From assembly GCA_038065915.1 (NCBI GenBank), contig JBBTPZ010000002.1, positions 18,714-69,625 on the forward strand: a DNA stretch of 50,912 bases. Reading direction: 5' to 3'. Positions 573-44,573 of this stretch are shown piece after piece. Positions within the stretch are counted from its first letter, which is position 1, and each line of letters starts with the position of its first letter. The notes below the pieces were generated by a model. That model did no database searches. It had not been told where the DNA came from and was given only the letters and a program-made list of their open reading frames with translations. This DNA is from Patescibacteria group bacterium. GTDB lineage: Bacteria; Patescibacteriota; Minisyncoccia; Phycocordibacterales; 21-14-all-36-13. The translations under genes were made by a program, and so were the position numbers.

Positions 573-1868
573 TTATTGCAAATAATCCAGTGGATTAAGA
601 TATGCATTTAATGGAGCAACAGGCATTTTAACATTACTGCAGTTTGTTATCTTTTTTATATCTCCCAATCTAACAATTTTGACACCTTGTGTTGCATAAA
701 CCGTCAAATGAAGATGAGGACCTGTTGAGTACCCAGTGTTGCCGGAATATCCTATTATGTCTCCAGTATTGACCGTTTCGCCGGCATTAACTTTTATTAA
801 TGAAAGGTGCGCATATAAAGTTGATAGACCATTTTCATGTTTTATTAAAATCCACTTCCCATACGAATAACATCCACGAGACTCATCCGTATTTCCTGTT
901 CCAACAATCACTCCGCCAAGAGAGGCCTTAATTTTTGTACCAACCGAAGCTCTAAAATCTATTCCATTATGTCCATTTCCATTATATGCAGTTGTTGTTT
1001 TTGAAAATTCGGTATCTCCAAAATATTGAGTTATAAAAATATTATCAAGAGGCCAATTTAAAACTCCTGCGCGTGCCCTAGGAATGCTGTTCGGGTCTAT
1101 AGTTATGCGTAATTCTGATTCAAGGTTTAAAAGTTCTTTTTCAAACTGTTCCTTTAACCTAAGTTTTTCCGCAACCATATTTCTATAGTTTGATTCTTTA
1201 TTTTTAGTTTCTTTTAATAAATTAAATTGTTCCGCTTTATTGTAATCAACAATTTTTTTCTGGTCAGCCAATTGTGATTTTAAATTTGCCAACTCTCTTC
1301 TTTTTTGTTCCTCACTCAATTTTTTGTTTGTATATTCTTCTTTAAGCACACGAAGTTCATTCAAATTGTCTTGTATACTGGATTGAAATTTTTCTAAATT
1401 TTCAATTATATTCCAAAAGTCAGACATTTTTTCATAACCAACAACAATTTCAATCAAAGAAGTTGAATCAAATTCATACATTCTTCTTATTGATTCCGAG
1501 AGGGCTTTGTTATTTTGTATTATTTGTTGTTTTTTGTCTGATATTTCCACACTTAACTTACCTATATTTGAATCAGTCAAACTTATTTTCTTTTCTGTAA
1601 TTTTCATATCTACTAACAGTTTTTTACCGGATATTTCAAGAATTTGAATAGCGTTTTGAAGTGTATCTTTTTCCTTTCCAATAGTTTCTATCATTTTTTG
1701 ATACCCGCTAATTTCTTTTTCCAATTCTTGAATTTTTGTACTTCTGTCATCAATTTCAGATTTTAATTCACTAATGGATGATGCATTAGCGAAATGTATT
1801 GCAAAAGGTGCATATAAAAAAAATAACAACAGAAAAATTATACACGCTGTTTTCTGATAAGTTTTCAT
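573..1868 (-). CDS. M23 (LytM) family metallopeptidase with N-terminal signal anchor and long coiled coil (EnvC-like)
   Basis: C-terminal motifs HNGIDFRA, LYAHLS and GPHLHLTVY. The N-terminal ~250 aa are heptad-rich. Confidence 0.9.
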   Translation of the reverse strand: MKTYQKTACIIFLLLFFLYAPFAIHFANASSISELKSEIDDRSTKIQELEKEISGYQKMIETIGKEKDTLQNAIQILEISGKKLLVDMKITEKKISLTDSNIGKLSVEISDKKQQIIQNNKALSESIRRMYEFDSTSLIEIVVGYEKMSDFWNIIENLEKFQSSIQDNLNELRVLKEEYTNKKLSEEQKRRELANLKSQLADQKKIVDYNKAEQFNLLKETKNKESNYRNMVAEKLRLKEQFEKELLNLESELRITIDPNSIPRARAGVLNWPLDNIFITQYFGDTEFSKTTTAYNGNGHNGIDFRASVGTKIKASLGGVIVGTGNTDESRGCYSYGKWILIKHENGLSTLYAHLSLIKVNAGETVNTGDIIGYSGNTGYSTGPHLHLTVYATQGVKIVRLGDIKKITNCSNVKMPVAPLNAYLNPLDYLQ

Positions 1869-1877
1869 TTGTAAAAA

Positions 1878-3239
1878 TTATTTAATAGAATTAATTTTTT
1901 TGACCGCTGTTTCTATTCTGCTGATGGTCTCTTTTTTACCAAGTAGTGATGCAAGAATAAACGGGTCTGGTGATTTATCAATTCCGGATAAAGCATATCT
2001 CATTGGCCAAAGAACATTTCCTCTTCCCTTTTCTGTCGCAAAATTCCAAACGGCGTCTTTTATTAATACAGAATTAAAATTATTGTCTTGTATTTTTTCT
2101 AACAAATTTAAAATTTCTTCCAAATATTTTTTTGTGTTTTGAATATTTTTTTCATCTTTCCACATTAATGATTTTGTTTCATATTCTGGTTGTTCAAAAA
2201 AGTATTTTAACTCTCCCCTTTTGTGCATGTCTTTTATATCTCCAAATTTTTCAATCCTTTCTTTAATAACAGGAATAATTTTTTCCACCTTTTTATCATA
2301 ATTTGGAAAATTTTTTATTTCTGATGGCATAAATTTATTAACAAGCTCCATAAATTTTTTATCCGATAACATTTGTATATATTTTTTGTTAAACCAATTT
2401 AATTTTTCTATATTAAAGACAGCTCCTCCTTTTTGAATTTTTTTCATATTGAATCCTTTTATAAATTCTTCTCTTGTTAGAATCTCTCTATCATCCCCAG
2501 GGTTCCATCCTAAAAATGCCAAAAAATTTATAATTGCTTCCGGTAAATATCCAAGATTTTTATATTCAACAACATTAACGGCACCATCTCTTTTTGAAAG
2601 TTTTGATTTATCTGGCGAAAGTATTAAAGGTATATGAGCGTAAACTGGTCTTTGAGCCCCAATCGCTTCTTGAATTAGAATTTGTCTTGGAGTGTTTGGT
2701 ATGTGGTCTTGTCCTCTTATTATATGAGTTATGCCCATTTCGTAATCATCAATAACATTTGTAAGATGAAATATAGGTGTTTCCATATCTTTCGCAATAA
2801 CAAAATCACCTAAGTCGGTTGTATTAACTTCCACATCTCCAACAATTAAATCGTTGAAAATTATTTTTTTGTTTGGATTTTTAAAACGAATGACCTCATC
2901 TCTATCCCCCCTTTTTTCAGGTTTTTCTTTTGAGACATAAGCACTGCCGTCACCTATCATTTTTTTTAGATATTTTTTATATATTTCAATTCTTTCAGAT
3001 TGTCTATAAATTTCATCATAATCAAGTTCTAACCATTTCATTGTTTCTAAAATACTTTTTTCGTATTCTTTTGTTGACCTTTCTCTGTCGGTATCTTCTA
3101 TTCTCAAAATAAATTTTCCACCATTTTGTCTTGCAAAAAGATAAGTAAAAAGAGCCGTTCTTGCTCCTCCAATATGCAAATAACCCGTCGGCGACGGAGC
3201 AAAACGAACAACGACATTATTTTTTAGATTTTTTGTCAT
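1878..3239 (-). CDS. gltX: glutamyl-tRNA synthetase
   Basis: VRFAPSPTGYLHIGGARTALF (HIGH region) and KLSKRDG (KMSKS). Length 453 aa. Confidence 0.95.
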   Translation of the reverse strand: MTKNLKNNVVVRFAPSPTGYLHIGGARTALFTYLFARQNGGKFILRIEDTDRERSTKEYEKSILETMKWLELDYDEIYRQSERIEIYKKYLKKMIGDGSAYVSKEKPEKRGDRDEVIRFKNPNKKIIFNDLIVGDVEVNTTDLGDFVIAKDMETPIFHLTNVIDDYEMGITHIIRGQDHIPNTPRQILIQEAIGAQRPVYAHIPLILSPDKSKLSKRDGAVNVVEYKNLGYLPEAIINFLAFLGWNPGDDREILTREEFIKGFNMKKIQKGGAVFNIEKLNWFNKKYIQMLSDKKFMELVNKFMPSEIKNFPNYDKKVEKIIPVIKERIEKFGDIKDMHKRGELKYFFEQPEYETKSLMWKDEKNIQNTKKYLEEILNLLEKIQDNNFNSVLIKDAVWNFATEKGRGNVLWPMRYALSGIDKSPDPFILASLLGKKETISRIETAVKKINSIK

Positions 3240-3823: not shown

Positions 3824-4008
3824 ACAAAAATTATATCATAAAAATAGAAACTCCCGCGGACCTTTCGGCTGGCGGGAGCGTTTATGTGATTAAATATACA
3901 CTAATATAATAAAAAAACAAGAAACTCATCAACCTTAATCTTCTGTGTCAGTTGTTTTAAGATTTTGTTTTTAAAAAGATTTATTTTTAGCCATAATTTG
4001 AGAAACAC

Positions 4009-4037
4009 TTGACAAAAAAATCTAATCATGCTATCAT
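4009..4037 (+). promoter_or_regulatory. sigma70-type promoter TTGACA-N17-(TGc)TATCAT
   Basis: -35 at 4009-4014 and extended -10 at 4029-4037, upstream of the + strand small ORF. Confidence 0.6.
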
Positions 4038-4114
4038 ATATGTAGAAAAATTAAAGATAGTTTTTTTCAGAAAAAAACACCGGAGTTGCAGGAACAATAA
4101 AAATTCCAAATCTT

Positions 4115-4354
4115 TTGACTCTAACAGGATATTATGAGTCAATTAAGACAACATCTGGTTTTGTTACAATTACCCTTGGCAATTTAGGTGACCCATATTC
4201 TTGGTTTGTATATGATAGAACCAAAAAAACTTGGTCAAGTGAAATTGGCTGGACAAAAAAATATTCAATTGATACTAAAACCCATATTCTTGTTGGTTTC
4301 GGATATTTTCCTGAAGCAAAAATGTTTAATACTTATTTTTGGATACATCTATAG
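4115..4354 (+). CDS. hypothetical small aromatic-rich protein (79 aa, TTG start)
   Basis: Lies between the promoter at 4009-4037 and the terminator at 4368-4398. No SD and no ATG start, so an RNA-only transcript is possible. Confidence 0.4.
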   Translation: MTLTGYYESIKTTSGFVTITLGNLGDPYSWFVYDRTKKTWSSEIGWTKKYSIDTKTHILVGFGYFPEAKMFNTYFWIHL

Positions 4355-4367
4355 TTTAGATGTACCA

Positions 4368-4398
4368 AAACCGGCGATTCACATCGTCGGTTTTTTTT
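4368..4398 (+). terminator. intrinsic terminator
   Basis: ACCGGCGA-TTCACA-TCGTCGGT stem followed by T8. Confidence 0.7.
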
Positions 4399-4418
4399 AT
4401 CTTTTTCATTCCAAAAAA

Positions 4419-4456
4419 TCTACACCTATCTCTGCTATCGCAAAGATAAGTGTAGA
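4419..4456. repeat. family A hairpin (core CTGCTATCGCA, stem class TCTACA)
   Basis: TCTACACCTATCTCTGCTATCGCAAAGATAAGTGTAGA. Two C-A mismatches become G-U pairs on the minus-strand RNA. T6 follows on the minus strand. Confidence 0.9.
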
Positions 4457-4460
4457 GACT

Positions 4461-5009
4461 TTATAATTCAAATTCATCCTTTAATAAATCTTCATTACTG
4501 ATTTTTTCTGTTTCAAGAAAGATTATGTGTTTTGAAACACCAAAATATTCTCCAATAAATTTGATTTCCTTTTTGCATTCATATGGGGTAATAAAAACCG
4601 ATTTCTGTATTGGAGCACATCCAATTCTTATCAATTTTAGGGTTAATCCATCTCTGGCTGTTTTATGTTTTTCTGGAATATCAAACATTATTATTCTCCA
4701 AATCCCATCCCACCCCTTTTGCTCTTTTATCTTTATTTCATCTATTTTGTATTTCAAAATCTCTTTTCTTCCATTTTCTGTTATTTCAATTACATCAATT
4801 CCTTCTTTTTTATATTTTTTAACATATTTTTTGTTTTCTAATCTATCTATTGCTCGTCTAATTTTCTCCTTTTCTTTCCATGCTTCCGCATCAAACATTT
4901 TATAGACAAGAGGTAATTGTGGAAGTGCCATAGAACCAATTACAAAAGTTGCCCCCACTATTGCTTTTAATATATCTTTAGCTAATTCTCCTCTACTGTG
5001 TTTTTTCAT
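4461..5009 (-). CDS. PaaX-family / Cas2-fold-like small protein, paralog 1 (182 aa)
   Basis: WDGIWRIIMFDIPEKHKTARDGLTLKLIRIGCAPIQKSVFITPYE matches the Cas2-like beta-alpha-beta core seen in PaaX-type proteins. Collinear paralog at 41512..42060. Confidence 0.8.
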   Translation of the reverse strand: MKKHSRGELAKDILKAIVGATFVIGSMALPQLPLVYKMFDAEAWKEKEKIRRAIDRLENKKYVKKYKKEGIDVIEITENGRKEILKYKIDEIKIKEQKGWDGIWRIIMFDIPEKHKTARDGLTLKLIRIGCAPIQKSVFITPYECKKEIKFIGEYFGVSKHIIFLETEKISNEDLLKDEFEL

Positions 5010-5050
5010 ACAAATTATTTTTTGAATGCCACCTTACCCCTCTACATCTA

Positions 5051-5088
5051 TCTCTGCTATAGCAGAGATAGATGTAGAAAGAATTTCT
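5051..5088. repeat. family A hairpin (stem class TCTACA)
   Basis: Perfect palindrome TCTACATCTATCTCTGCTA/TAGCAGAGATAGATGTAGA, ~40 nt upstream of the paralog 1 start. Confidence 0.9.
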
Positions 5089-5174
5089 TCTTTTAAAAAA
5101 CAATTTTCTCACTGCTTATTTATTCATAACCCCATATATCCATATAATTCTTCTAAAAAAATATCATACTTTTA

Positions 5175-5214
5175 TTCTACACTTATCTTTGCTATCGCAA
5201 AGATAAGTGTAGAA
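5175..5214. repeat. family A hairpin (stem class TCTACA)
   Basis: TTCTACACTTATCTTTGCTATCGCAAAGATAAGTGTAGAA, directly after the murG stop. Confidence 0.9.
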
Positions 5215-5219
5215 AATAT

Positions 5220-6347
5220 CTACTTTTCGTGTTCCAAAGCAATTCTTATTAATTCTTTTGCGATTATTTTTGCTGAATCGGTTTTAGCGAATGATTTTGT
5301 TGCATTTATCATATTATTTCTTTTTGTTTCATTACCCATAATTTCTTCCACCTGTGAAATAAGTATGTCATCTGAAAGATTATTTTCTTCAATAACAATA
5401 GCAGAACCGGATGAAGCATAATTAAAGGCGTTTTTTCTTTGGTGATCTCCGTTTGAATTTGTTATTGGAATTATTATACTTGGAACACCCCAAACAGCTA
5501 TTTGAAAAATTGTTGAACCGGCTCTTGAAATAATTAAATCAGCGACCCCTGCAGACATTTTCATCGCAATCGTGTTCAAATAAGAAAAAGGTTTATATCT
5601 GTTTTTATATTTACTATTTTTTAATTCTATATCTGCCAAATTTTTTACATCTGCAAAATTTTTTTCTCCTGTTTGATGAATTATTTGATATTTTTCTACA
5701 AGTTTTGGAAGCGAATCAATAATTACATTATTTATTGTTTGAGAACCCAAGGAACCGCCTATTATAAAAATTACAGGAACATCTTTTTCTAATTTTAAAA
5801 ATTCTTCTGCCCCAGTTTTTGAAGGTTTTAATAATTCTTTCCTTATTGGATTACCCGTTAGGGCCACTTTTTCTTTTGGAAAATAATTTGATGCCTCTGG
5901 ATAAGAAATAGCAATCTTTTTGGCAAATTTTCCAGCCCACATATTGACTTTTCCGGGGACACTATCTGACTCATGAATTATTAGTGGAATTTTAAAAATT
6001 TTTGATGCAAGAATTACAGGAAAACTTCCATAACCTCCTTTTGAAAAAATTACATCTGGGAAAATATTGAATACAACAAAAACACTTTTTACTATTCCCC
6101 ACCCTGTTTTAAATAAATCAAAAAAGTTCATCAAAGAAAAATATCTTCTTAATTTTCCCGCTGATATTTTTTTATATTCTATACCAAGTTCAAAAAGAGC
6201 CCTTTTATCATAAACATCCGGTGCTAAAAAAAACAAATCTGGTTCTAATAGATTTTCATCTTTAACTATTTCCCTTATTTCTTCTGCAACGGCAATAATC
6301 GGATAAAAATGTCCGCCCGTGCCTCCGCCTGTAAATACAATTTTCAT
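5220..6347 (-). CDS. murG: UDP-GlcNAc:undecaprenyl-PP-MurNAc-pentapeptide GlcNAc transferase
   Basis: MKIVFTGGGTGGHFYP N-terminus and typical MurG length (375 aa). Confidence 0.95.
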   Translation of the reverse strand: MKIVFTGGGTGGHFYPIIAVAEEIREIVKDENLLEPDLFFLAPDVYDKRALFELGIEYKKISAGKLRRYFSLMNFFDLFKTGWGIVKSVFVVFNIFPDVIFSKGGYGSFPVILASKIFKIPLIIHESDSVPGKVNMWAGKFAKKIAISYPEASNYFPKEKVALTGNPIRKELLKPSKTGAEEFLKLEKDVPVIFIIGGSLGSQTINNVIIDSLPKLVEKYQIIHQTGEKNFADVKNLADIELKNSKYKNRYKPFSYLNTIAMKMSAGVADLIISRAGSTIFQIAVWGVPSIIIPITNSNGDHQRKNAFNYASSGSAIVIEENNLSDDILISQVEEIMGNETKRNNMINATKSFAKTDSAKIIAKELIRIALEHEK

Positions 6348-6480
6348 CCTGTAGTGAAAAATGGCATCGCTCTAAAAGAGCGCGGTCATTTTTGTTGTTA
6401 ATGTTAATAAATCTTGTCTCATAAATTTTTCATTATTTTAATATCCATTCCCGAATGCCATTTTCTACTACGGGATTCAT
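6345..6480. repeat. family E long inverted repeat (CATCCTGTAGTGAAAAATGGCAT / ATGCCATTTTCTACTACGGGATTCAT) enclosing an inner hairpin
   Basis: Arms at 6345-6367 and 6455-6480 give 22 pairing positions (2 wobbles, 1 mismatch on the + strand). The left arm contains the murG start codon. Confidence 0.85.
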
Positions 6481-6547
6481 CTTATTTATTATATAACAAA
6501 ATTATCTCAAAACAAACGAAGTAAATTTGTGATATTTAATTTAAAAT

Positions 6548-6716
6548 TAAAAAATCAAAATGAAAAATAATTATCCCTTCGGGAGATCTCCCGTAGGGAG
6601 ACAATGTAAAATATTAAAGTTACTGAACAAATTTTCTGAAAGAAAATTTGCAACTAATCTTTTGTTCGCCTTCGGCGAACTCCATAACTTTACACTTTGA
6701 GATTTACACTTTGCAT
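6548..6716. repeat. family D composite repeat (~150-170 bp; modules CCCTTCGGGAGATCTCCCGTAGGG, AAATTTTCTGAAAGAAAATTT, TTCGCCTTCGGCGAA, TTTACACTTTG)
   Basis: Abuts the ftsW stop. An inverted homologous copy lies at 7826-7990 and a direct copy at 33443-33592. Confidence 0.85.
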
Positions 6717-7823
6717 TCATACCGCTTTGCGGTATTTAGATATGTTTAATATAATTCCAACGGACGCAAGAGCAAAAAACAGAGCGGTTCCACCCTTGCT
6801 TACGAATATCAAAGGCATTCCTGTTAGAGGACCAACACCAAGCATTGATGCAATATTTATACTTGATTGAGTTATTATCAATAAAATAATCCCAACAACA
6901 AGCAATCTTGCAAAATTTGTCGGGGCCCTCGAAGCAATTTTAAAACCACGAAATGTAAAAACGAGAAACAAAATAAGTAATGCGATACTTCCAACAAATC
7001 CCCATTCTTCTGCAAAAACAGCAAATATGGAATCCCCTATTGGTTCAGGTAGAGAGCTAAATTTTTGTATACTTTGTCCAAAGCCCCTACCAAACATTCC
7101 GCCGGAACCAATTGCAATAAGAGATTGTTGTATTTGATATCCCGACCCATCCGGGTCCCTTCCGGGGTCAAAATATGTTAAAAATCTATCTTTTATATAA
7201 AAATACTGTTCAAAAGAAGCAAGTATCATAACTCCTATTGATATAATTAAAATTAAACCAAGCGCGTGTTTCCAACTCCCTCCGCCAACCAAGAACATTC
7301 CTATTGCGGTTACTGCTATTACAATCAAAGTTCCCGTATCTGGTTGTGCAAGTAAGATTCCAGCAATAATTCCAACCATAATAAAAAGAGGAATAATTCC
7401 ATATTTAAGCGATAAAATTTTTGTTTTTACACCAGCAATCCATGCCGAAAAATAAATTACAAATCCTATCTTAAGTAATTCCGCGGGTTGAAATGAAAAC
7501 GGACCGAGTGATAACCATCTTGTTGCTCCGCCATGCTCAATGCCTATACTAGGAATAAAAACTAATGCTGTTAATATCAAAGAACCTAAAAATATATAAA
7601 AAGCGTATTTATTCCAAATTTTATAATTTATTTTTGAAAATAAAATGAGTGCCAATGAACCAAGGAAAACTCCCAAGAAAATTTGATTGAAGGCAACCGA
7701 AGAAAAACTTGCTCCATCTTTTGCTAATAAACCCAAAGATGCTGATGTAAAAATAAAAAGTCCACCCAAAACCATAATGGCTGTTATTAATAAAAATACT
7801 TTGTCTATTTTGTGTTCGTGCAT
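6717..7823 (-). CDS. ftsW: SEDS family peptidoglycan polymerase (FtsW/RodA)
   Basis: 10-TM profile, FtsW/RodA-like sequence, position between mraY and murG. Confidence 0.9.
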   Translation of the reverse strand: MHEHKIDKVFLLITAIMVLGGLFIFTSASLGLLAKDGASFSSVAFNQIFLGVFLGSLALILFSKINYKIWNKYAFYIFLGSLILTALVFIPSIGIEHGGATRWLSLGPFSFQPAELLKIGFVIYFSAWIAGVKTKILSLKYGIIPLFIMVGIIAGILLAQPDTGTLIVIAVTAIGMFLVGGGSWKHALGLILIISIGVMILASFEQYFYIKDRFLTYFDPGRDPDGSGYQIQQSLIAIGSGGMFGRGFGQSIQKFSSLPEPIGDSIFAVFAEEWGFVGSIALLILFLVFTFRGFKIASRAPTNFARLLVVGIILLIITQSSINIASMLGVGPLTGMPLIFVSKGGTALFFALASVGIILNISKYRKAV

Positions 7824-7825
7824 GA

Positions 7826-7990
7826 TAGAAAGTTAAAAATGCAAAAATCAAAATGCAAAGTTGTCGTATCCGCCGAAGGCGGACGAACAATTAGTTATAA
7901 ATTTTCTTTCAGAAAATTTACTCAATGATTCTAACATTTTAAATTGTCTCCCTACGGGAGATCTCCCGAAGGGATGGTCATTTTACACCT
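7826..7990. repeat. family D composite repeat, inverted relative to 6548-6716
   Basis: The reverse complement aligns module by module with 6575-6716. Abuts the ftsW start. Confidence 0.85.
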
Positions 7991-8056
7991 TGCCTGCCCC
8001 GTAGTTAAATTTGTAAAATTTATACTTCGGGGAGATTTGCATTTTAAATTTTTGTA

Positions 8057-9109
8057 CTACTTTAGTAGTGCAATAATAACTCCAACAAATGCAAATACAA
8101 CACTTATTACCCAATAACGCATTGTGACTTTATATCCCGGCCATCCTTTTGCTTCAAAATGATGATGTATTGGTGCTACAAGAAAAATTTTTTTCCCTCG
8201 CAATTTTTTAGACAAAATCTGAATAATATCGGAAAGTGTTGTTATGACTAAAGGAAAAGCAATGATTGGTAAAACAAGAACTTCTTTTGTTAAAAATGCA
8301 ACAACGGCCAAAGTCATTGTTAGTGCCATACTTCCTGTCTCTGACATATAAAATCTTGCTGGTGGAATATTAAACCACAGAAATGCAAGCAGACCACCAA
8401 CTATAACAAAACTAAAAGTCGCTAAATCAACTTGGTTTTGAACAAATGCTATTACTCCGTATGCTGAAAATGCGGAAGAAAAAACTCCACCGGCAAGTCC
8501 GTCAATTCCATCGATAACACCACCAGAATAAATACCAAGCATAACAATTATAAAAAATGGTATAAATAATAATCCTATATCAAGATCTCCAACCAAAGGT
8601 ATGGCGACAGATGTCATTTCAAGTTTTGAGTAAAACCACCAAGCACCTATCAGAGATACAACAAAAACAACAAGTAATCTCTTTTTTAAAGATAAACCGC
8701 CGGCGAGATGGTCTTTCTTTCCTTTCACTTCAAAATAGTCATCAATCAAACCTATGACCGCTCCTACCAAGAGAGTAAATAATGGCAACCATGTTTGATT
8801 TCTGCTGAAAAAATCTAATTTAGAAGTTATTTCAAAATTAAAAATATAAGGCAGTATTAAAAATAATAATGTAGTTAAAATTACACTCCCCCAAATTAAT
8901 ATTCCGCCCATTTTAGGTGTCCCGACTTCTTTTCCTTTGTGTAATTTATTAAAAATAGGAGTATCTTTTCCATCCATTCCTACCTTCCCTGATTTTTTTT
9001 TCCACATTTTATGCTTGTATAAATAACTTATCAAAACAGGAGCAAAGCCAATGCCTATCAAGAAAGCAATCGCCGATGGTGTAAATACTTTTATTATGTT
9101 TATTATCAT
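8057..9109 (-). CDS. mraY: phospho-N-acetylmuramoyl-pentapeptide transferase
   Basis: GTPKMGGILIW, DDYFEVKGK and APIHHHFE motifs. Confidence 0.95.
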   Translation of the reverse strand: MIINIIKVFTPSAIAFLIGIGFAPVLISYLYKHKMWKKKSGKVGMDGKDTPIFNKLHKGKEVGTPKMGGILIWGSVILTTLLFLILPYIFNFEITSKLDFFSRNQTWLPLFTLLVGAVIGLIDDYFEVKGKKDHLAGGLSLKKRLLVVFVVSLIGAWWFYSKLEMTSVAIPLVGDLDIGLLFIPFFIIVMLGIYSGGVIDGIDGLAGGVFSSAFSAYGVIAFVQNQVDLATFSFVIVGGLLAFLWFNIPPARFYMSETGSMALTMTLAVVAFLTKEVLVLPIIAFPLVITTLSDIIQILSKKLRGKKIFLVAPIHHHFEAKGWPGYKVTMRYWVISVVFAFVGVIIALLK

Positions 9110-17038: not shown

Positions 17039-18661
17039 CTACAGGGTAAATTTTTTTGAATTCAATTCAACATAAAACTCTGCGCCCTTACCTTCCCCAT
17101 CTGATTCAGCCCAGACCTTGCCGTTGTGCGCTTCTATAATTTTTTTAACTATATATAAACCAAGCCCTGTTCCTTTAACATTAACTTTATTTGCATTATT
17201 TGCTCTTCTGAATAATGTGAATAATCCGGATAATTCTTTTTCTGGAATCCCGACACCACTATCTGAAATAGAGAATAATATTTTTTTATTACTATCAATT
17301 TTTTTAAGTTCAGTTTTTACCCAACCATATTTTGCGTACTTCAGCGCATTATCTATCAAATTTGTTATTACTTGTTTAAATTTGCCTATATCAATTTTCG
17401 CATTGTACTCTGCAGATTTATCATAATTAAAAGAAAACTCCAAACCTGATTCATCTATTGATGGTTTCATTTCATTTATTACACTTTCTATAATTTCATT
17501 TATTTTTGCCGTTTCAAATTTATACTCCATTCTTCCCTGCTCTATCCGCGAAACATTTAAAAAGTCCTCAACTATCATTGCGAGATTGTTTGTAGAATCA
17601 AACATATTTTTAACAGGTTGCTTTATTTTGTCATCAATTTTTCCGTATGACCCTTCCATAATTAATGAAGCATATCCTTTTATTGCGGAAAGTGGACTTC
17701 TAAATTGATGCGACGCAATAGATAAAAATTCTGATTTTTGTCTATCTAACTCTTTTAATTTTACATTTGCATCTTCCAATTTTGCGTTTGTTACTTCTAA
17801 ATCTTTTGCAAGTTTTTCAATTTTTTCTCTCGTGCTGATTTCTTTTAGAACACTCTTAATAAGCAAAATGCCTAATATTACCATAACAGACAATAAGACA
17901 ACTTCTATTATTTTATCTTGAATATTGCTAGCGAGTAAGATTCTTCCGAACAAGAAAAACCAAATAGAGAATACCAACAATTGTGTGGCGAGGACTTTAA
18001 TATTTAATAATTGATATTTAAAAATAGAATATACTACAACCAGAGCAGAAATAAGAATAGTTATATTATAAACTGGGTAAACATAAATTCCGTAAACAGG
18101 GAAAAAAGAAGTTGCTCCACCTGCAAAACCAACAATAAAGGCAAGAATGAGATATTGTATTTGGTGTTTAACGACAGGATTTTTACTTTTATTTAATTCC
18201 TTATAAAGAATGAAGATGTTATAAATTGCCAACAATAAAAATAGTGTGACCATCGTGGTATAAATTGGCGTTGGTGTGATGTAATAGAATTGATTAAAAA
18301 TAAAACGAACAGGCCCAAAAAAATAATCGGTAAATATATCAAAAAATAAAAAAATAAAAGATATAAAATACAGTACAAATATTAATTTTTTTTTGGAATA
18401 GTTTAAAAATTCATAAACAAAATGTGTTAAAAATACTGGAATAAAGATAACCCCAATTTCTGCAATACGCCACCAAAAAACAGAATTTTCCAATTCAACA
18501 GATGACGCAAATTTAAATATTCCAAAACCCCACAATGCAACAGATGTAGAAAAAAGCCCCCAAATAAAATGGATTTTTTGTTTTGTGTTTACGAAAGAAT
18601 AAACAGCCAATACGACTGAAGCAATAGCAATGATTAAACCTACTATCGAAAGAATATTCAT
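17039..18661 (-). CDS. sensor histidine kinase with multi-TM (7TM-type) N-terminal domain
   Basis: H-box SIASHQFRSPLSAI, N-box DNALKY, and G-boxes DSGVGI and GTGLGLYIV. About 8 hydrophobic spans in the first 270 aa. Confidence 0.9.
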   Translation of the reverse strand: MNILSIVGLIIAIASVVLAVYSFVNTKQKIHFIWGLFSTSVALWGFGIFKFASSVELENSVFWWRIAEIGVIFIPVFLTHFVYEFLNYSKKKLIFVLYFISFIFLFFDIFTDYFFGPVRFIFNQFYYITPTPIYTTMVTLFLLLAIYNIFILYKELNKSKNPVVKHQIQYLILAFIVGFAGGATSFFPVYGIYVYPVYNITILISALVVVYSIFKYQLLNIKVLATQLLVFSIWFFLFGRILLASNIQDKIIEVVLLSVMVILGILLIKSVLKEISTREKIEKLAKDLEVTNAKLEDANVKLKELDRQKSEFLSIASHQFRSPLSAIKGYASLIMEGSYGKIDDKIKQPVKNMFDSTNNLAMIVEDFLNVSRIEQGRMEYKFETAKINEIIESVINEMKPSIDESGLEFSFNYDKSAEYNAKIDIGKFKQVITNLIDNALKYAKYGWVKTELKKIDSNKKILFSISDSGVGIPEKELSGLFTLFRRANNANKVNVKGTGLGLYIVKKIIEAHNGKVWAESDGEGKGAEFYVELNSKKFTL

Positions 18662-19839
18662 TATATTATTCTAAAACCATTAATTTGTTTTTTATCAGAA
18701 ATACCAGTGATAACCTTTTCTTCACCGAGTGATATGTGCGTATCGTTAGGAATCATTCTACCTGGGGCAACAACACACCCAGAACCCAAATATACATTGT
18801 TGCCAAGACAACAACCCAATAATGTACTTCCTGTATCAACCTTAAGCCCATCTTTAATCACATTAATTGATTTGTTGTCTAATCTAAAATCGGTTAAAAC
18901 TGCTCCTAGTCCGACAAAAGAATCTTTGCCAACTATACTAGTTGATATCGCGTGGGTTATAGAAAAAAATCCAGAATAAAGAACACAAAACAAAATATGA
19001 CCACTTAATATTGTAGATTTTTCTCCAATAACTGACATTTCAATAACCACTCCATTGCCTATAAAACAATTATCACCAATTATGGACTCTCTGATAACCG
19101 TTCCCGCACCAATGGTAACATTATTACCTATAGTACTTCCCTCTATATAAGCCGTGTGATGAATTTTGTTATTTTTTCCGACCTCATTCAAAAAACTTGC
19201 AATTTTCCATTTATCAGATGATCTTGCTTTTAAAAATAATTTTATTAATTTAAATTTTGATAATTTTTTAAAACTAGCCAACCTAGACAAAATTGACATT
19301 AAGTTTGCCGTCCACAAATTAGCCCAGTGATCTATTTGGATTATAACTTTTTCCGTAACAGGCATTGGATAATTGGAATTTTTATACATATGTTCTGGTA
19401 AAATCAAATTTTCATAATCTTGGTCATTTTCCAATACGATAGGTTTTATTTCTTGGTTTCTTAAATATTTTTGTGGATAATAAAAAATATTATATTCTAT
19501 TCTGTCTTCATATTTTTTAACATTTTGAGTATTAACAATGGTTTGGTTGGTAAAAACCCCCAGTTTTAATGAACACACGGTTGGTGAGTTTATTTTTTTT
19601 GATTTGTCAATAAATTCCCTCAAAAGAGGGGCAGTAAAATAAATTGCACTGTCTAAAATTAAATATTCATCATCATCATCTATTTTTAAATTACTATCAA
19701 AAAATACAGCTATGATTCCGAGAGATTCCAAGGATTCTTTTTGTAGGCCTTTTAAACATTTGTTTCCAATTAAAAGTGTCTCACTATCTTCAAAAAAGGG
19801 TTCAATTTGGATTTGATTTTTTATTATATAAGCTTTCAT
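18661..19839 (-). CDS. left-handed beta-helix (hexapeptide repeat) protein with an unknown N-terminal domain
   Basis: Hexapeptide run IEGSTIGNNVTIGAGTVIRESIIGDNCFIGNGVVIEMSVIG. TAATG overlap with the kinase start. Confidence 0.75.
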   Translation of the reverse strand: MKAYIIKNQIQIEPFFEDSETLLIGNKCLKGLQKESLESLGIIAVFFDSNLKIDDDDEYLILDSAIYFTAPLLREFIDKSKKINSPTVCSLKLGVFTNQTIVNTQNVKKYEDRIEYNIFYYPQKYLRNQEIKPIVLENDQDYENLILPEHMYKNSNYPMPVTEKVIIQIDHWANLWTANLMSILSRLASFKKLSKFKLIKLFLKARSSDKWKIASFLNEVGKNNKIHHTAYIEGSTIGNNVTIGAGTVIRESIIGDNCFIGNGVVIEMSVIGEKSTILSGHILFCVLYSGFFSITHAISTSIVGKDSFVGLGAVLTDFRLDNKSINVIKDGLKVDTGSTLLGCCLGNNVYLGSGCVVAPGRMIPNDTHISLGEEKVITGISDKKQINGFRII

Positions 19840-21020
19840 TTTTTATTTTTAAATTCCTCTAATTTTATAATAAAATCTTTTGCCAATTCATAGACAAAAT
19901 TTTCTTTTTTGTGTACAGATATTATTTTATTCATTTTATTACCCATAACCATTTTTAAATTACTTAGATCATATTCATTACTTTTTGTCATATAATATCT
20001 ATAAGTATTTAAAATTTTTGACAACGATTTTGTAAAACTAAAAAAAGAAAGAAACTGCGATATTAATATCATAAATATATTAACAAAAAAAGAGTTTATT
20101 TCCAAAATTGGCATGTTCATATTCATTGCACTTAATGATTCTTTCATCACGGTTTTCATTGATGGTGGAACCGGATTTGTTATATGAAATATTTTTCCAT
20201 TGTTTTTTTTCTTTTTTAAAACTTCATCAATTACATTAATTACCGAATCTAAATATACAAGATTCAGTGTTGATTTTCTTGATACTAACCATGGTATTGG
20301 AATGCGTAATTTACCATTTTTAGAACGAAAGATGCTATTTAGAAGAAAAATATTTCTATTGTTTATTTCTTCCAAAACTTTCTTTAACTTAAAAAATGAA
20401 TGCAAAACAGAGTAATAGCCAAAAAATTTTGTTGATATAAAATCTCCACCAACTAAAATACTTGGTCTAAAAATGACAAATTTTTTACCATTTTTTTTAC
20501 TCCATTTATATATTTCTTTTTCAGATATAAATTTACTTTCCTCATAATAGTTATTGAACTTTCGCCCATCATCTTTTAATTTTTCTTCATAACAAATTCC
20601 GGGTTTCTTTCCATGAATATATGCGGTGCTAACATAATAAAAATTACAGCCCAAAAATTTGCTCAACTTAAGCATATTTTTTGTCCCCTCTATGTTTGTT
20701 TTGAAGATGTTTTCTTTGTCCTTTTTTTTAAAACTCAAATTTGCGGCTAGATGTAATAAACCATCTACCTTATTTTTATATTCGGAAAACTCTTTTCTTT
20801 CTATTATGTTTGAATCGGTAATATCTACTTCTACCGCAACCACAAGTTTTAAAAATTGATTTTTTTCATTGTTTTCAATCTCTTTGTAAATTCTTTCTTC
20901 AAACGAAATATTTTCTTTCCCACGACCAACAAAAATAATTCTGTTGCCTTGCTCTAACAATCTTTTGGCTAAAGCAGACCCTAAATACCCCGTTCCACCA
21001 GTTAGTATATAAGTTTTCAC
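19836..21020 (-). CDS. extended SDR / thioester-reductase-like NAD(P)-binding protein with hydrophobic C-terminal region
   Basis: TGGTGYLG Rossmann motif, HLAA and YYEESK (YxxxK). GTG start. ATGA overlap with the next gene. Confidence 0.85.
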   Translation of the reverse strand: MKTYILTGGTGYLGSALAKRLLEQGNRIIFVGRGKENISFEERIYKEIENNEKNQFLKLVVAVEVDITDSNIIERKEFSEYKNKVDGLLHLAANLSFKKKDKENIFKTNIEGTKNMLKLSKFLGCNFYYVSTAYIHGKKPGICYEEKLKDDGRKFNNYYEESKFISEKEIYKWSKKNGKKFVIFRPSILVGGDFISTKFFGYYSVLHSFFKLKKVLEEINNRNIFLLNSIFRSKNGKLRIPIPWLVSRKSTLNLVYLDSVINVIDEVLKKKKNNGKIFHITNPVPPSMKTVMKESLSAMNMNMPILEINSFFVNIFMILISQFLSFFSFTKSLSKILNTYRYYMTKSNEYDLSNLKMVMGNKMNKIISVHKKENFVYELAKDFIIKLEEFKNKK

Positions 21021-21027
21021 AAATATA

Positions 21028-21036
21028 ATTATATCA
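21028..21036 (-). promoter_or_regulatory. extended -10 TGaTATAAT, 7 nt before the GTG start (leaderless-type)
   Basis: ATTATATCA on the + strand at 21028-21036. Confidence 0.5.
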
Positions 21037-21702: not shown

Positions 21703-21731
21703 AAATTCCAGCGGTTCAACCGCTGGAATTT
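21703..21731. terminator. hairpin terminator between convergent genes
   Basis: AAATTCCAGCGG-TTCAA-CCGCTGGAATTT. Confidence 0.7.
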
Positions 21732-24147: not shown

Positions 24148-24181
24148 CTTGTCCCGTAGCGAGCTTTGCTCTACTACTGGG
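24148..24181. repeat. family H element CTTGTCCCGTAGCGAGCTTTGCTCTACTACTGGG
   Basis: Near-identical copy at 39996-40030. This copy overlaps the plsC stop codon and the last codons (..ETSQ*). Confidence 0.85.
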
Positions 24182-24866
24182 ATGTCTCTTTATAAAGTTC
24201 TTTTATTTCATCCATTATCTTATTCGCGCCGAGTTTATAATCATTTATTGTGATTTCTTTTTTATCATCAAAAATATCTTTTAAATACATCGGCTTTCCT
24301 ATATTCAAAACAATTTTTCTTTTTCTCAAAAAGAAATTTTCCCAAGATATTTTATATGTGCTATTAATCCCAACTGGTACAACTGGAAAATTAGTTTTAT
24401 GTGCGAGAAAAGCCACTCCACCTTTTGCTTCTTTAAAATTTCTATCCTTGGTCGTCCCTCCCTCGGGGAAAATAAATAAACTATGCTTATCATTCAAAAT
24501 TTTTATATGATCTCTGAGAGATTCTTCATAATTATGAACCCCTATCGCAACTGCGTAGGAACCCCACGCCTTAAAAAATAAGCCTGATGAAAAAAATATT
24601 CTCATCCAAAGTCTTTTATAAAAAGTGTTTTCACGAGAAGTATAAAACATCGGCATAAATTTTGATAAAAAAGGCAAACTTGCGGGTAAAAGTATCGGGT
24701 CAAGAGCATTTGCGTGGTTTGATGCAAAAATAATCCCTTTTTCAAGGCCTTTCAAATTTTCAATTCCACGAACTTTTAAGCCAACAAAAAAAATTAAAAC
24801 CAGTCGAGCCGGTATCCATATTAATGTTTGTAAAAATAGTGGCGGTATATAATAAAGTTTTTTCAT
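24174..24866 (-). CDS. plsC: 1-acyl-sn-glycerol-3-phosphate acyltransferase
   Basis: NHANALD (HX4D) and FPEGGTT motifs. ORF opens at a TTG (24878); the ATG at 24866 lies 11 nt after TGaTATAAT. Confidence 0.9.
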   Translation of the reverse strand: MKKLYYIPPLFLQTLIWIPARLVLIFFVGLKVRGIENLKGLEKGIIFASNHANALDPILLPASLPFLSKFMPMFYTSRENTFYKRLWMRIFFSSGLFFKAWGSYAVAIGVHNYEESLRDHIKILNDKHSLFIFPEGGTTKDRNFKEAKGGVAFLAHKTNFPVVPVGINSTYKISWENFFLRKRKIVLNIGKPMYLKDIFDDKKEITINDYKLGANKIMDEIKELYKETSQ

Positions 24867-24877
24867 TTGACTCGTCA

Positions 24878-24886
24878 ATTATATCA
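24878..24886 (-). promoter_or_regulatory. extended -10 TGaTATAAT upstream of plsC
   Basis: ATTATATCA on the + strand. Confidence 0.45.
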
Positions 24887-44379: not shown

Positions 44380-44470
44380 TAATAAATTCATCATAAAATC
44401 ACTAAATCCATGAAACCATAAAAGCAATCTACTCTCTTATTCAATTGAATGGTTGTATAGGTAAAAATCC

Positions 44471-44499
44471 TTGACAGACAAATCGTTTAGATATATAAT
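44471..44499 (+). promoter_or_regulatory. consensus promoter TTGACA-N17-TATAAT
   Basis: -35 at 44471-44476, -10 at 44494-44499. Confidence 0.7.
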
Positions 44500-44573
44500 A
44501 TATTGTAGAAAATAAAGGCAGTTTTTTGAGTCAAAAATAAATATTTTTCAATTAAATTTCCCAGGAGGAAAAA

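Follow-up and report, generated by a model that had tools for sequence, protein, structure and literature searches.

Enzyme genes and the sensor half of a Patescibacteria histidine kinase appear to be inherited and exchanged as one cassette

The stretch of DNA considered here (the window) comprises 50,912 nucleotides with a G+C content of about 30%. It lies on contig JBBTPZ010000002.1 (C2) of an ultra-small groundwater bacterium of the Patescibacteria, or Candidate Phyla Radiation (CPR), whose genome is available as 545,571 bases on 31 contigs with an estimated completeness of 86%. Coordinates below are window positions; G000 denotes the query genome, other G numbers its relatives and L numbers retrieved loci. 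Three minus-strand open reading frames (ORFs), listed at 19836-21020, 18661-19839 and 17039-18661, encode a thioester-reductase-like short-chain dehydrogenase/reductase (SDR), a left-handed β-helix (LbH) protein and a histidine kinase with a seven-transmembrane (7TM) sensor domain. The first two genes are joined by an ATGA at 19839-19836 and the last two by a TAATG at 18663-18659, as an original prediction made from the sequence alone had read them, and its domain assignments agree with profile searches that returned NAD_binding_4, hexapeptide/LbH and HisKA_7TM with HisKA and HATPase_c. All three genes are under purifying selection relative to the sister genome G001, with ratios of non-synonymous to synonymous substitution (dN/dS) of 0.175 for the SDR, 0.13 for the LbH protein and 0.09 for the kinase. 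The comparisons below indicate that the enzyme genes and the 7TM sensor half of the kinase are inherited and exchanged as one cassette, and this joint inheritance suggests that the enzymes may make or process what the kinase senses.

The kinase has 540 residues and matches HisKA_7TM (PF16927) over residues 9-221 with 47.1 bits against a cut-off of 28.6 bits, HisKA (PF00512) at 2.6e-13, also above the cut-off and with H318 in the motif SHQFRSPL, and HATPase_c (PF02518) at 2.6e-24 with the N box at 434, G1 box DSGVG at 467, F box at 481 and G2 box GTGLG at 497. The H, N and G boxes are complete, as had been predicted, but the count of about 8 transmembrane (TM) spans has to be raised: the AlphaFold model, built with 22 homologues at a predicted local distance difference test score (pLDDT) of 85-95, shows nine TM helices, seven of the 7TM domain and two in front of the dimerisation and histidine phosphotransfer (DHp) domain. 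TM9 continues into the DHp helix, and the second outer loop holds a small β-hairpin. A Foldseek search with the model placed HK853 and WalK on top, both matching in the kinase core only, and returned no match for the 7TM domain. To judge by its motifs, the core is of the standard HK853-like HisKA type with a complete phosphotransfer apparatus. In sensors of the LbH type, 43 residues are invariant, of which 35 lie in TM helices, six on the outer face (four of them in the outer hairpin) and two in the cytoplasmic loops, which are short and unconserved. Residues specific to this clade include the buried K50 in TM2 and E68 in TM3 and, in the outer hairpin, F122, F125 and Y127. In the literature, HisKA_7TM is listed only as a sensor domain with unknown ligand (PMC5847659).

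Within a set of 41 relatives, 29 genomes carry a full-length orthologue of the kinase, and the congeners G001, G002 and G003 allow its history to be read in detail. Identity to the kinase of G002 is 25% in the 7TM domain, 46% in TM8-9, 88% in DHp and 81% in the catalytic and ATP-binding (CA) domain, whereas the corresponding values for the kinase of a distant trio locus, L047, are 56%, 69%, 61% and 39%; over G002 and G003 together, DHp is 88-95% and CA 77-81% identical. The identity profile of the protein climbs from at most 35% to at least 75% between residues 208 and 268, and homology with G002 at the DNA level starts at position 18019, which is about residue 215. Upstream of the trio, homology with G002 and G003 returns at 21731, and 21733-21945 matches (tblastn, 82-86% identity) the first 71 residues of the Methyltransf_20 protein encoded directly before the kinase in those two genomes; no further match to PF12147 is present in the query genome. 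The jump in identity between 7TM domain and core, the breakpoints at 18019 and 21731 and the methyltransferase stump together indicate that a segment of about 3.7 kb has replaced, in frame, most of a methyltransferase gene along with the region that encoded the old sensor. The segment contains the 5' third of the kinase gene, the LbH and SDR genes and a small hydrolase-like ORF, which sits between both breakpoints and has no counterpart in G002 or G003. Conservation of the trio in relatives, which the original prediction had proposed as a check, holds across the CPR but not within the genus: two of the three congeners have the methyltransferase and a different sensor instead.

Phylogenies of the two kinase halves are consistent with this replacement. 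In the tree of the 7TM domains, all nine LbH-adjacent sensors form one clade (support 98/99, and 100/100 in a set of 37 sequences), the PlsC-HAD, PrmA-like and most Rossmann-type sensors also group by partner, and a topology with the genus as one clade is rejected (p-AU 4e-5). In the core tree it is the genus that holds together (100/100), and grouping the SDR-LbH-type cores into one clade is rejected (p-AU 9e-4). The partner label changes six times on the sensor tree, where five is the minimum, versus 15 times on the core tree, so that across 34 kinases the sensor type follows the upstream gene and the core follows the genome. The 13 LbH proteins of the CPR likewise form one clade (SH-aLRT 99) with subclades that match those of the sensor tree, and across distant CPR lineages the LbH-type sensor, as classified in these trees, always accompanies an LbH gene. 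Import of a whole kinase together with the enzymes is ruled out, as both the full-length tree and the core tree keep the genus together.

Other rearrangements of kinase genes were also found. Short relics of the kinase 3' end (about 100-180 nt) lie 1.5-6 kb downstream of an intact kinase in G001, G003, G006 and G038; window positions 17061-17197 match the relic in G001, where genes for an MvdD-type ATP-grasp protein and a DUF6624 protein stand between kinase and relic. Further short kinase fragments in G016 and G029 were not placed relative to a kinase. The relics suggest that the 3' end of the kinase gene may also have been used as an anchor for insertions or exchanges. Two or three 7TM kinases occur in tandem in L073 (8198-11581), in L131 of G028 (3950-8783) and in L129 of G024 (3966-7270). 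The L073a and L073b paralogues have sister cores and sensors of unrelated clades, which points to diversification of the sensor on a duplicated core, while in the G024 and G028 tandems no sister relation of the cores was resolved.

The gene directly upstream of the kinase differs widely between relatives. It encodes a Methyltransf_20 protein in G002, G003, G006, G020, G023, G027 and G033, a Rossmann protein resembling shikimate dehydrogenase in G004, G011, G024 and G026, a SET protein in G013, G022 and G030 and a PrmA-like methyltransferase in G018 and G019; in G037 and G038 the kinase is preceded by genes for PlsC and HAD proteins. Partners seen once each are an amidohydrolase, an ADC-like protein, a GARS-like ATP-grasp protein, a nitroreductase, a formyltransferase and two proteins without a Pfam match. 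Whatever its identity, the upstream gene is co-directional with the kinase in 35 of 35 loci, versus 71% of background pairs, and 71% of kinase junctions have a gap of at most 10 nt, mostly in the form of a 4-nt overlap, versus 33% of the remaining co-directional gene pairs of these loci (p = 3e-5, uncorrected for relatedness). By this spacing, the start of the kinase gene is translationally coupled to the upstream gene. A lipid theme shared by all partners, as PlsC, HAD and an acyl reductase might have it, is ruled out by the methyltransferase, SET, amidohydrolase, nitroreductase, ATP-grasp and formyltransferase partners, and the lipid- or sugar-modifying role that had been proposed for the window enzymes does not extend to the slot in general, which holds about a dozen unrelated gene types. 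The PlsC protein of the window is 85-87% identical to one encoded 2-4 kb upstream of the kinase in G002 and G003, and plsC lies near the kinase in seven of ten other relatives; this closeness could simply reflect a conserved gene order, since the opposite side has conserved tRNA synthetase genes as well. Several partners resemble protein methyltransferases, namely the SET proteins (L065 in G013, L128 in G022, L136 in G030), the PrmA/PRMT-like proteins (L127 in G018, L137 in G019) and the Methyltransf_20 proteins, which have a faint similarity to CheR, and for this reason the alternative has been raised that some cassettes modify a protein and do not make a small molecule.

The LbH protein is present in three genomes of the set of 41: the query genome, one of the three congeners and one genome from another family. 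Searching 401 genomes of the phylum with the full LbH protein gave matches in 58, all of them LbH-domain matches to ordinary GlmU-like proteins and none full-length except that in the query genome, and this search is unusable for presence or absence. An LbH gene followed directly by a 7TM kinase was found in about 28 locus retrievals across CPR lineages, some of them redundant. They include G001, the five assembly loci L042, L044, L046, L047 and L049, six genome loci with downstream sequence from Parcubacteria, Campbellbacteria, Staskawiczbacteria and Saccharibacteria, 17 metagenome loci, and L222 and L223, which were found by a search with the sensor only. In G038, PlsC and HAD genes separate the LbH gene from the kinase. 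By contrast, no kinase adjoins the LbH gene in any of about 35 genome loci outside the CPR. Metagenome loci with an LbH gene and no kinase carry no phylum assignment, and L143 is the sole one of low G+C content among them. Genes for radical-SAM/SPASM, MvdD-type ATP-grasp and DUF6624 proteins recur beside the trio elsewhere in the CPR (L008 of G001, 1684-3063 and 7168-8793; L222, 2122-3444; L223, 856-1896; L047, 4391-5408; L049, 10776-11288) and are not found in the window. Since radical-SAM/SPASM and MvdD-type ATP-grasp enzymes typically mature ribosomal peptides, a peptide component of the signal is conceivable.

The absence of a response regulator, which had been noted for the operon, holds for the locus but not for the pathway. 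No receiver domain is encoded in the window or elsewhere on its contig, and the possibility that a cognate regulator sits just outside the window does not apply, the likely regulator being on another contig. The suggested search of the genome for orphan regulators returned two receiver-only proteins of 132-133 aa with Response_reg as their sole domain, one on contig C23 and one on C20; there is no adjacent DNA-binding response regulator, and neither receiver has a DNA-binding domain. The C23 receiver (132 aa, PF00072 at 1.2e-21) is encoded between PilB and PilT and keeps D12, D13, D57, S87 and K109 as read from its sequence. The C20 receiver (133 aa; L002, 432-1884), a weak match to an "inactive receiver" family in Pfam, follows a gene for a ComEC-type metallo-β-lactamase and precedes rpmB, and none of the three congeners was found to have it. 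Both receivers therefore stand beside pilus or DNA-uptake genes.

The window kinase is the only histidine kinase found in the query genome, the other HATPase_c match being GyrB. The 7TM kinase is likewise the sole histidine kinase found in the four genomes of the genus and in G023 and G027, and the receiver between PilB and PilT is the sole receiver in G001, G002, G003, G023, G027 and G037, the last of which also has one partial match to a non-7TM kinase at a contig end. Orthologues of this receiver occur in 29 of 29 genomes with the 7TM kinase versus seven of 12 without (Fisher p = 0.001, uncorrected). G014, which is 100% complete, and G039 have neither kinases nor receivers, and G012 has neither the 7TM kinase nor the pilus receiver; in these three genomes pilB abuts pilT. 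The PilB-receiver-PilT order was seen in all ten receiver-bearing genomes inspected, G000 and the Saccharibacteria genome G439 among them. By elimination, from this co-occurrence of a sole kinase with a sole receiver, the protein encoded at the pilus locus is most likely the partner of the kinase. Within the genus, DHp is 88-95% and the pilus receiver 88-94% identical whatever sensor is attached, so that different cassettes probably feed the same output. One branch of the LbH cassette family has a 7TM-GAF kinase, and there a receiver-only gene follows directly 3' of the kinase (L098, L149, L172, L173 and L181), as does a receiver ORF of 268 aa in L160 of the same type; the Saccharibacteria genome with L098 has in addition a receiver gene between those of a PilB-like protein and PilT.

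A mode of action for such a receiver is known from Xanthomonas oryzae, in which the single-domain, output-less CheY-like protein EmvR receives its phosphoryl group from a histidine kinase encoded at another site and binds PilB, the ATPase of which it represses (PMC11973254). The pilus receiver of the CPR is receiver-only like EmvR; EmvR, however, is an orphan, whereas the CPR protein is syntenic with the pilus motors. Further receivers of this kind are PilG and PilH of the Pil-Chp system.

The SDR matches NAD_binding_4 (PF07993) at 2.4e-32, with 112.6 bits against a cut-off of 20.1 bits, and has the Rossmann motif GGTGYLG at residue 8 and the catalytic pair Y159-x3-K163. Among solved structures in the PDB, the thioester reductase of MxaA (4u7w) came out closest, and the YxxSK motif aligns between the two. 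The similarity to MxaA, the R domain of AusA and fatty acyl-CoA reductases consists in the top Pfam and PDB matches and in the aligned TGxxGxxG and YxxSK motifs. Unlike the first two, which are terminal domains embedded in nonribosomal peptide or polyketide synthases, the window SDR is free-standing; it also differs from thioester reductases in staying below the TIGR01746 cut-off (72.2 of 213 bits, over the N-terminal 190 residues only) and in its hydrophobic C-terminal segment. It would be of the acyl-thioester-reducing kind, enzymes of which give hydrophobic products. The hydrophobic tail described earlier is present at residues 303-329 but is lineage-specific and not a general feature: it is pronounced in G000, G001 and L044 alone, and six other SDRs of the CPR have it weakly or not at all, which rules out a membrane tether docking on the sensor as a general feature. 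In most CPR loci, as in Chloroflexi and Bathyarchaeia, the LbH gene is immediately preceded by an SDR gene.

In the LbH protein, hexapeptide and LbH_EIF2B profiles match residues 218-380. Residues 1-215 have no Pfam match, NTP_transferase included, and to that extent this domain was rightly called unrecognised; its fold, however, can be assigned from the AlphaFold2 model (pLDDT 92.3, predicted template modelling score 0.90). Foldseek placed ST0452 on top over the full length (5z0a, 5z09 and 2ggo, with template modelling scores of 0.54-0.62), followed by GlmU, GMPPA/B and eIF2B-epsilon, and because of these matches the N-terminal domain is modelled as a nucleotidyltransferase fold followed by a GlmU-type helical arm, from which onward the LbH profile aligns. 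ST0452 of Sulfolobus tokodaii and GlmU thus resemble the protein in their order of nucleotidyltransferase-fold domain, helical arm and C-terminal left-handed β-helix. They carry the GxGTR(x)nK loop, whereas in the LbH family the GxGTR loop is absent and the consensus of the alignment starts with MKAYIxxxxKxIEPF; their gene contexts differ as well. The acetyltransferase active site of ST0452 is taken here to consist of His308, Asn331 and Lys337. In the sequence alignment with ST0452 residues 312-377, R333, D335 and K337 are kept as R319, D321 and K323, while N331 corresponds to D317; the position of His308 precedes the aligned block, and the family shows no conserved histidine there. TIGR03992 is matched in the LbH part only, with 47.7 bits against a cut-off of 292 bits. 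As the GxGTR loop, N331 and a conserved equivalent of His308 are missing, the protein is best regarded as belonging to a distinct conserved family and is not filed as an orthologue of GlmU or ST0452.

This family comprises about 180 clusters with 42-57% full-length identity from Patescibacteria, Chloroflexota, Desulfobacterota, Actinomycetota, Bathyarchaeia, Nitrososphaeria and others. SDRs are its commonest neighbours in several phyla, with the order SDR-LbH in Chloroflexi and SDR-aminotransferase-LbH in Bathyarchaeia. In Dehalococcoidia (L048, L075, L089, L092, L105) the family is found in clusters with UbiA prenyltransferases, PALP, radical SAM and B12-binding radical SAM proteins, and in Desulfobacteraceae (L076, L080, L083, L085, L086) with an aminotransferase, an unknown protein of 391 aa, an ATC-hydrolase-like protein, a B12-radical SAM protein and a flavoenzyme of the old yellow enzyme (OYE) family; both types of cluster look like undescribed biosynthetic pathways. 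A stand-alone gene for a canonical NTP_transferase stands immediately 5' of the LbH gene in some Chloroflexi (L078, 5841-6572; L102; L090), which would fit a non-catalytic nucleotidyltransferase-like domain paired with a catalytic subunit in the manner of GMPPA and GMPPB.

The model favoured here, which we hold with somewhat less than even confidence, is that of a modular unit in which the product of the SDR and LbH proteins is sensed by the matched 7TM domain of a kinase that signals to the pilus receiver. Such a CPR signalling unit would consist of a conserved core of DHp and CA domains into which exchangeable cassettes are spliced in frame, each made up of one or two genes, mostly for enzymes, and a matching 7TM sensor domain. 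In the lineage of the window, an SDR-LbH-7TM cassette has displaced a methyltransferase-7TM cassette, of which a stump of 71 codons was left. The SDR and the acyltransferase-like LbH protein would then make or modify a small molecule that probably partitions into the membrane, and the matched 7TM domain would detect it inside the membrane, with K50, E68 and the aromatic outer hairpin as candidate contacts. The sole kinase would thereupon phosphorylate the CheY-like receiver encoded between PilB and PilT, which in turn might tune the extension and retraction of type IV pili without a transcription factor.

Against this model stands a serious rival, if on balance a rather unlikely one, according to which the DNA of the kinase core and an upstream flank such as plsC merely anchor recombination, so that the sensor region and its cargo are swapped together with no signalling tie between them. 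The breakpoints lie exactly where sequence conservation begins, both flanks of the trio in G001 differ from those in the window, and the relics of the kinase 3' end downstream of four kinases imply that the conserved core would be a recombination anchor in its own right. The roughly 12 types of upstream gene are chemically unrelated and are as compatible with cargo carried at a hotspot of recombination as with many signals, and some related sensors have different enzymes upstream: one sensor clade holds five partner types, among them SET, PrmA-like, ATP-grasp and formyltransferase, Methyltransf_20 occurs with two sensor clades, and in G038 the LbH gene stands ahead of a sensor of the PlsC-HAD type. 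Outside the CPR, moreover, the SDR-LbH pair is found in other phyla without any kinase. These observations weigh against the signalling model, as do the missing GxGTR loop and conserved histidine of the LbH family, the seven relatives that have the pilus receiver and not the 7TM kinase, and several features of the analysis itself: support for the model is comparative throughout, the tree groups were defined from gene context and tested after the trees had been seen, the genomes compared are related, and the partner receiver was assigned by elimination in a genome that is 86% complete and encodes a second receiver. Recombination without a signalling tie, on the other hand, does not readily account for the fact that, wherever the sequence suffices, the LbH gene of a CPR locus has a 7TM kinase downstream (in G038 beyond the PlsC-HAD pair), or for the persistence of the LbH-sensor pairing from Parcubacteria to Saccharibacteria while the cores, and even the GAF insertion, differ. 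Nor would it predict the co-directional junctions with an overlap or abutment rate far above that of background pairs, the clade-specific buried polar residues kept in LbH-type sensors or the purifying selection on all three genes.

Co-inheritance of sensor and enzyme would also be accounted for by partner specificity if the upstream protein acted as a "trigger enzyme", binding a cytoplasmic substrate, docking on the matched sensor or linker and so switching the kinase, much as other kinases are switched by accessory proteins and transporters, with the LbH protein as a ligand-binding regulatory subunit like GMPPA or eIF2B. Translational coupling favours equimolar synthesis, the N-terminal domain is strongly conserved though without the catalytic loop, its structural neighbours include the regulatory pseudoenzymes GMPPA and eIF2B-epsilon, and the NTP_transferase neighbour in some Chloroflexi would suit such a role. 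Docking would, however, have to take place on short, unconserved cytoplasmic loops; as 35 of the 43 invariant residues lie in TM helices and only two in these loops, detection inside the membrane is favoured, and the LbH family outside the CPR looks enzyme-like in its clusters with radical SAM, UbiA, aminotransferase and OYE proteins. Co-sensing by the enzymes is accordingly judged improbable. Far less credible still is a kinase that acts directly on its two co-translated enzymes without a receiver: none is found in the window or contig or beside the trio in loci of the Parcubacteria type, but the HK853-like core has a complete phosphotransfer apparatus, receiver-only proteins are encoded in the genome, the 7TM-GAF subclade of this cassette family has a receiver gene right after that of the kinase, and DHp and pilus receiver are conserved within the genus to the degree expected of a kinase-receiver pair that has been kept. 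Of the functions first ascribed to the operon, a functional tie between kinase and enzymes gains support from the co-exchange with the 7TM sensor and from the tight junction in the 35 loci, while stoichiometric coupling and regulation of the enzymes by the kinase are unsupported.

A modifying enzyme combined with a variable polytopic sensor and a conserved kinase domain, the boundary falling within the kinase gene, is the pattern characteristic of the comQXP pherotypes and of the hypervariable agrB-D-C region. In Bacillus subtilis, polymorphism of the enzyme goes along with that of the signal and of the N-terminal membrane domain of ComP, the cytoplasmic kinase domain being conserved (PMC4008528). 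Like the window trio, comQXPA has the gene of a modifying enzyme directly 5' of a histidine kinase with an 8-10 TM sensor, often with overlaps. It differs in its ComX peptide precursor, no similar gene for which was identified here, in its isoprenyl transferase as opposed to an SDR and an LbH protein, in the HisKA_3 type of ComP as opposed to HisKA, in the adjacent DNA-binding regulator ComA as opposed to a receiver-only protein at the pilus locus, and in that alleles of one enzyme family vary, whereas different enzyme families do so here. The hypervariable region of staphylococcal agr spans the processing enzyme, the signal gene and the sensor part of AgrC, giving rise to specificity groups (PMC10482373). 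Its boundary lies inside the kinase gene, as in the window kinase; it differs in its peptide thiolactone signal, in AgrC being of the HPK10 family and in the adjacent LytTR regulator, and neither a peptide nor cross-inhibition is indicated by the data on the window system. A further analogy is offered by CqsA/CqsS of Vibrio and LqsA/LqsS of Legionella, in which a cytoplasmic enzyme using acyl-thioesters makes a hydrophobic signal that the kinase encoded by the neighbouring gene detects through a multi-helix membrane domain with no large periplasmic part. CqsA and LqsA depend on pyridoxal phosphate, and their sensors have six TM helices and are hybrid kinases feeding phosphorelays, in all of which the window system differs; we know of no cassette exchange of the present kind in these systems. 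Measured against the comQXP and agr cassettes, the window system shows co-variation of enzyme and sensor, a conserved kinase domain and a boundary inside the kinase gene, as well as adjacency, overlap and co-orientation of enzyme and kinase genes, and its enzymes may make a signal. No description of the arrangement was found in the literature searched on CPR kinases, HisKA_7TM and pilus-linked receivers of the CPR.

Much of bacterial diversity belongs to the CPR, whose members live attached to other microbes and depend on type IV pili for host contact. To our knowledge they have almost no transcription factors or two-component systems. The present locus shows that their principal, and often only, sensor kinase is modular: its sensing half comes packaged with certain enzymes, and one such package may take the place of another even among close relatives. 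Should the ligand be a product of these enzymes, a direct and testable route to the first signalling molecules of the CPR and to the control of their pili would be open; even if linkage were the whole explanation, a domain replaced in frame inside a kinase gene and the remnant of its former partner would still be documented. A more far-reaching and doubtful extension is a plug-in form of communication in which at least a dozen cassettes of enzyme and 7TM receptor are joined by recombination to one conserved kinase core, the sole outputs of which are CheY-like proteins that act on the type IV pilus motors, each cassette defining a private signal or pherotype. In that case, close episymbionts such as G000 and G001 as opposed to G002 and G003 would use different molecules to time pili, host attachment and DNA uptake. 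The LbH family of bacteria and archaea is, independently of this, a still uncharacterised enzyme or pseudoenzyme that has an SDR as its conserved partner.

Features of the locus and relics of the kinase gene in related genomes
Feature	Position	Strand	Remark
SDR, thioester-reductase-like, 394 aa, GTG start	19836..21020	-	first gene of the operon
GlmU/ST0452-like two-domain LbH protein, 392 aa	18661..19839	-	nucleotidyltransferase-like N-terminal domain (modelled), helical arm, left-handed β-helix
Kinase, 5' part: HisKA_7TM sensor, residues 1 to about 214	18020..18661	-	part of the exchanged cassette
Kinase, 3' part: TM8-9, signalling helix, DHp (H318), CA	17039..18019	-	resident, genome-tracking
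Methyltransf_20 remnant, first 71 codons	21733..21945	-	upstream edge of the replaced segment
α/β-hydrolase-like ORF, 193 aa	21113..21694	+	weak Pfam matches to Hydrolase_4 and Abhydrolase_5, E about 1e-3
Extended -10-like element TGATATAAT	21028..21036	-	7 nt before the GTG start of the SDR gene; leaderless-type
PlsC-type acyltransferase gene	24174..24878	-	PF01553 at 1.1e-14; conserved upstream flank of the variable slot
Kinase 3'-end relics	G001:C11:9065-9241; G003:C1:163682-163780; G006:C1:122179-123050; G038:C14:40758-40859, 44443-44541		

The -10-like element is, from its position, a putative promoter element of the SDR gene. A generic scan for promoters and terminators found fewer promoter-like sites than in shuffled sequences of this AT-rich DNA, and operon boundaries were not obtained from it. 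In the LbH protein of the window, residues 224 and 225 (window 19165-19170) are N224 and K225; at least 90% of the family, the sister genome G001 included, have C224 and D225 in the motif NCDIHPTAY, and weak matches of the LbH domain in the PDB had brought to mind a metal binding like that of gamma-carbonic anhydrases.

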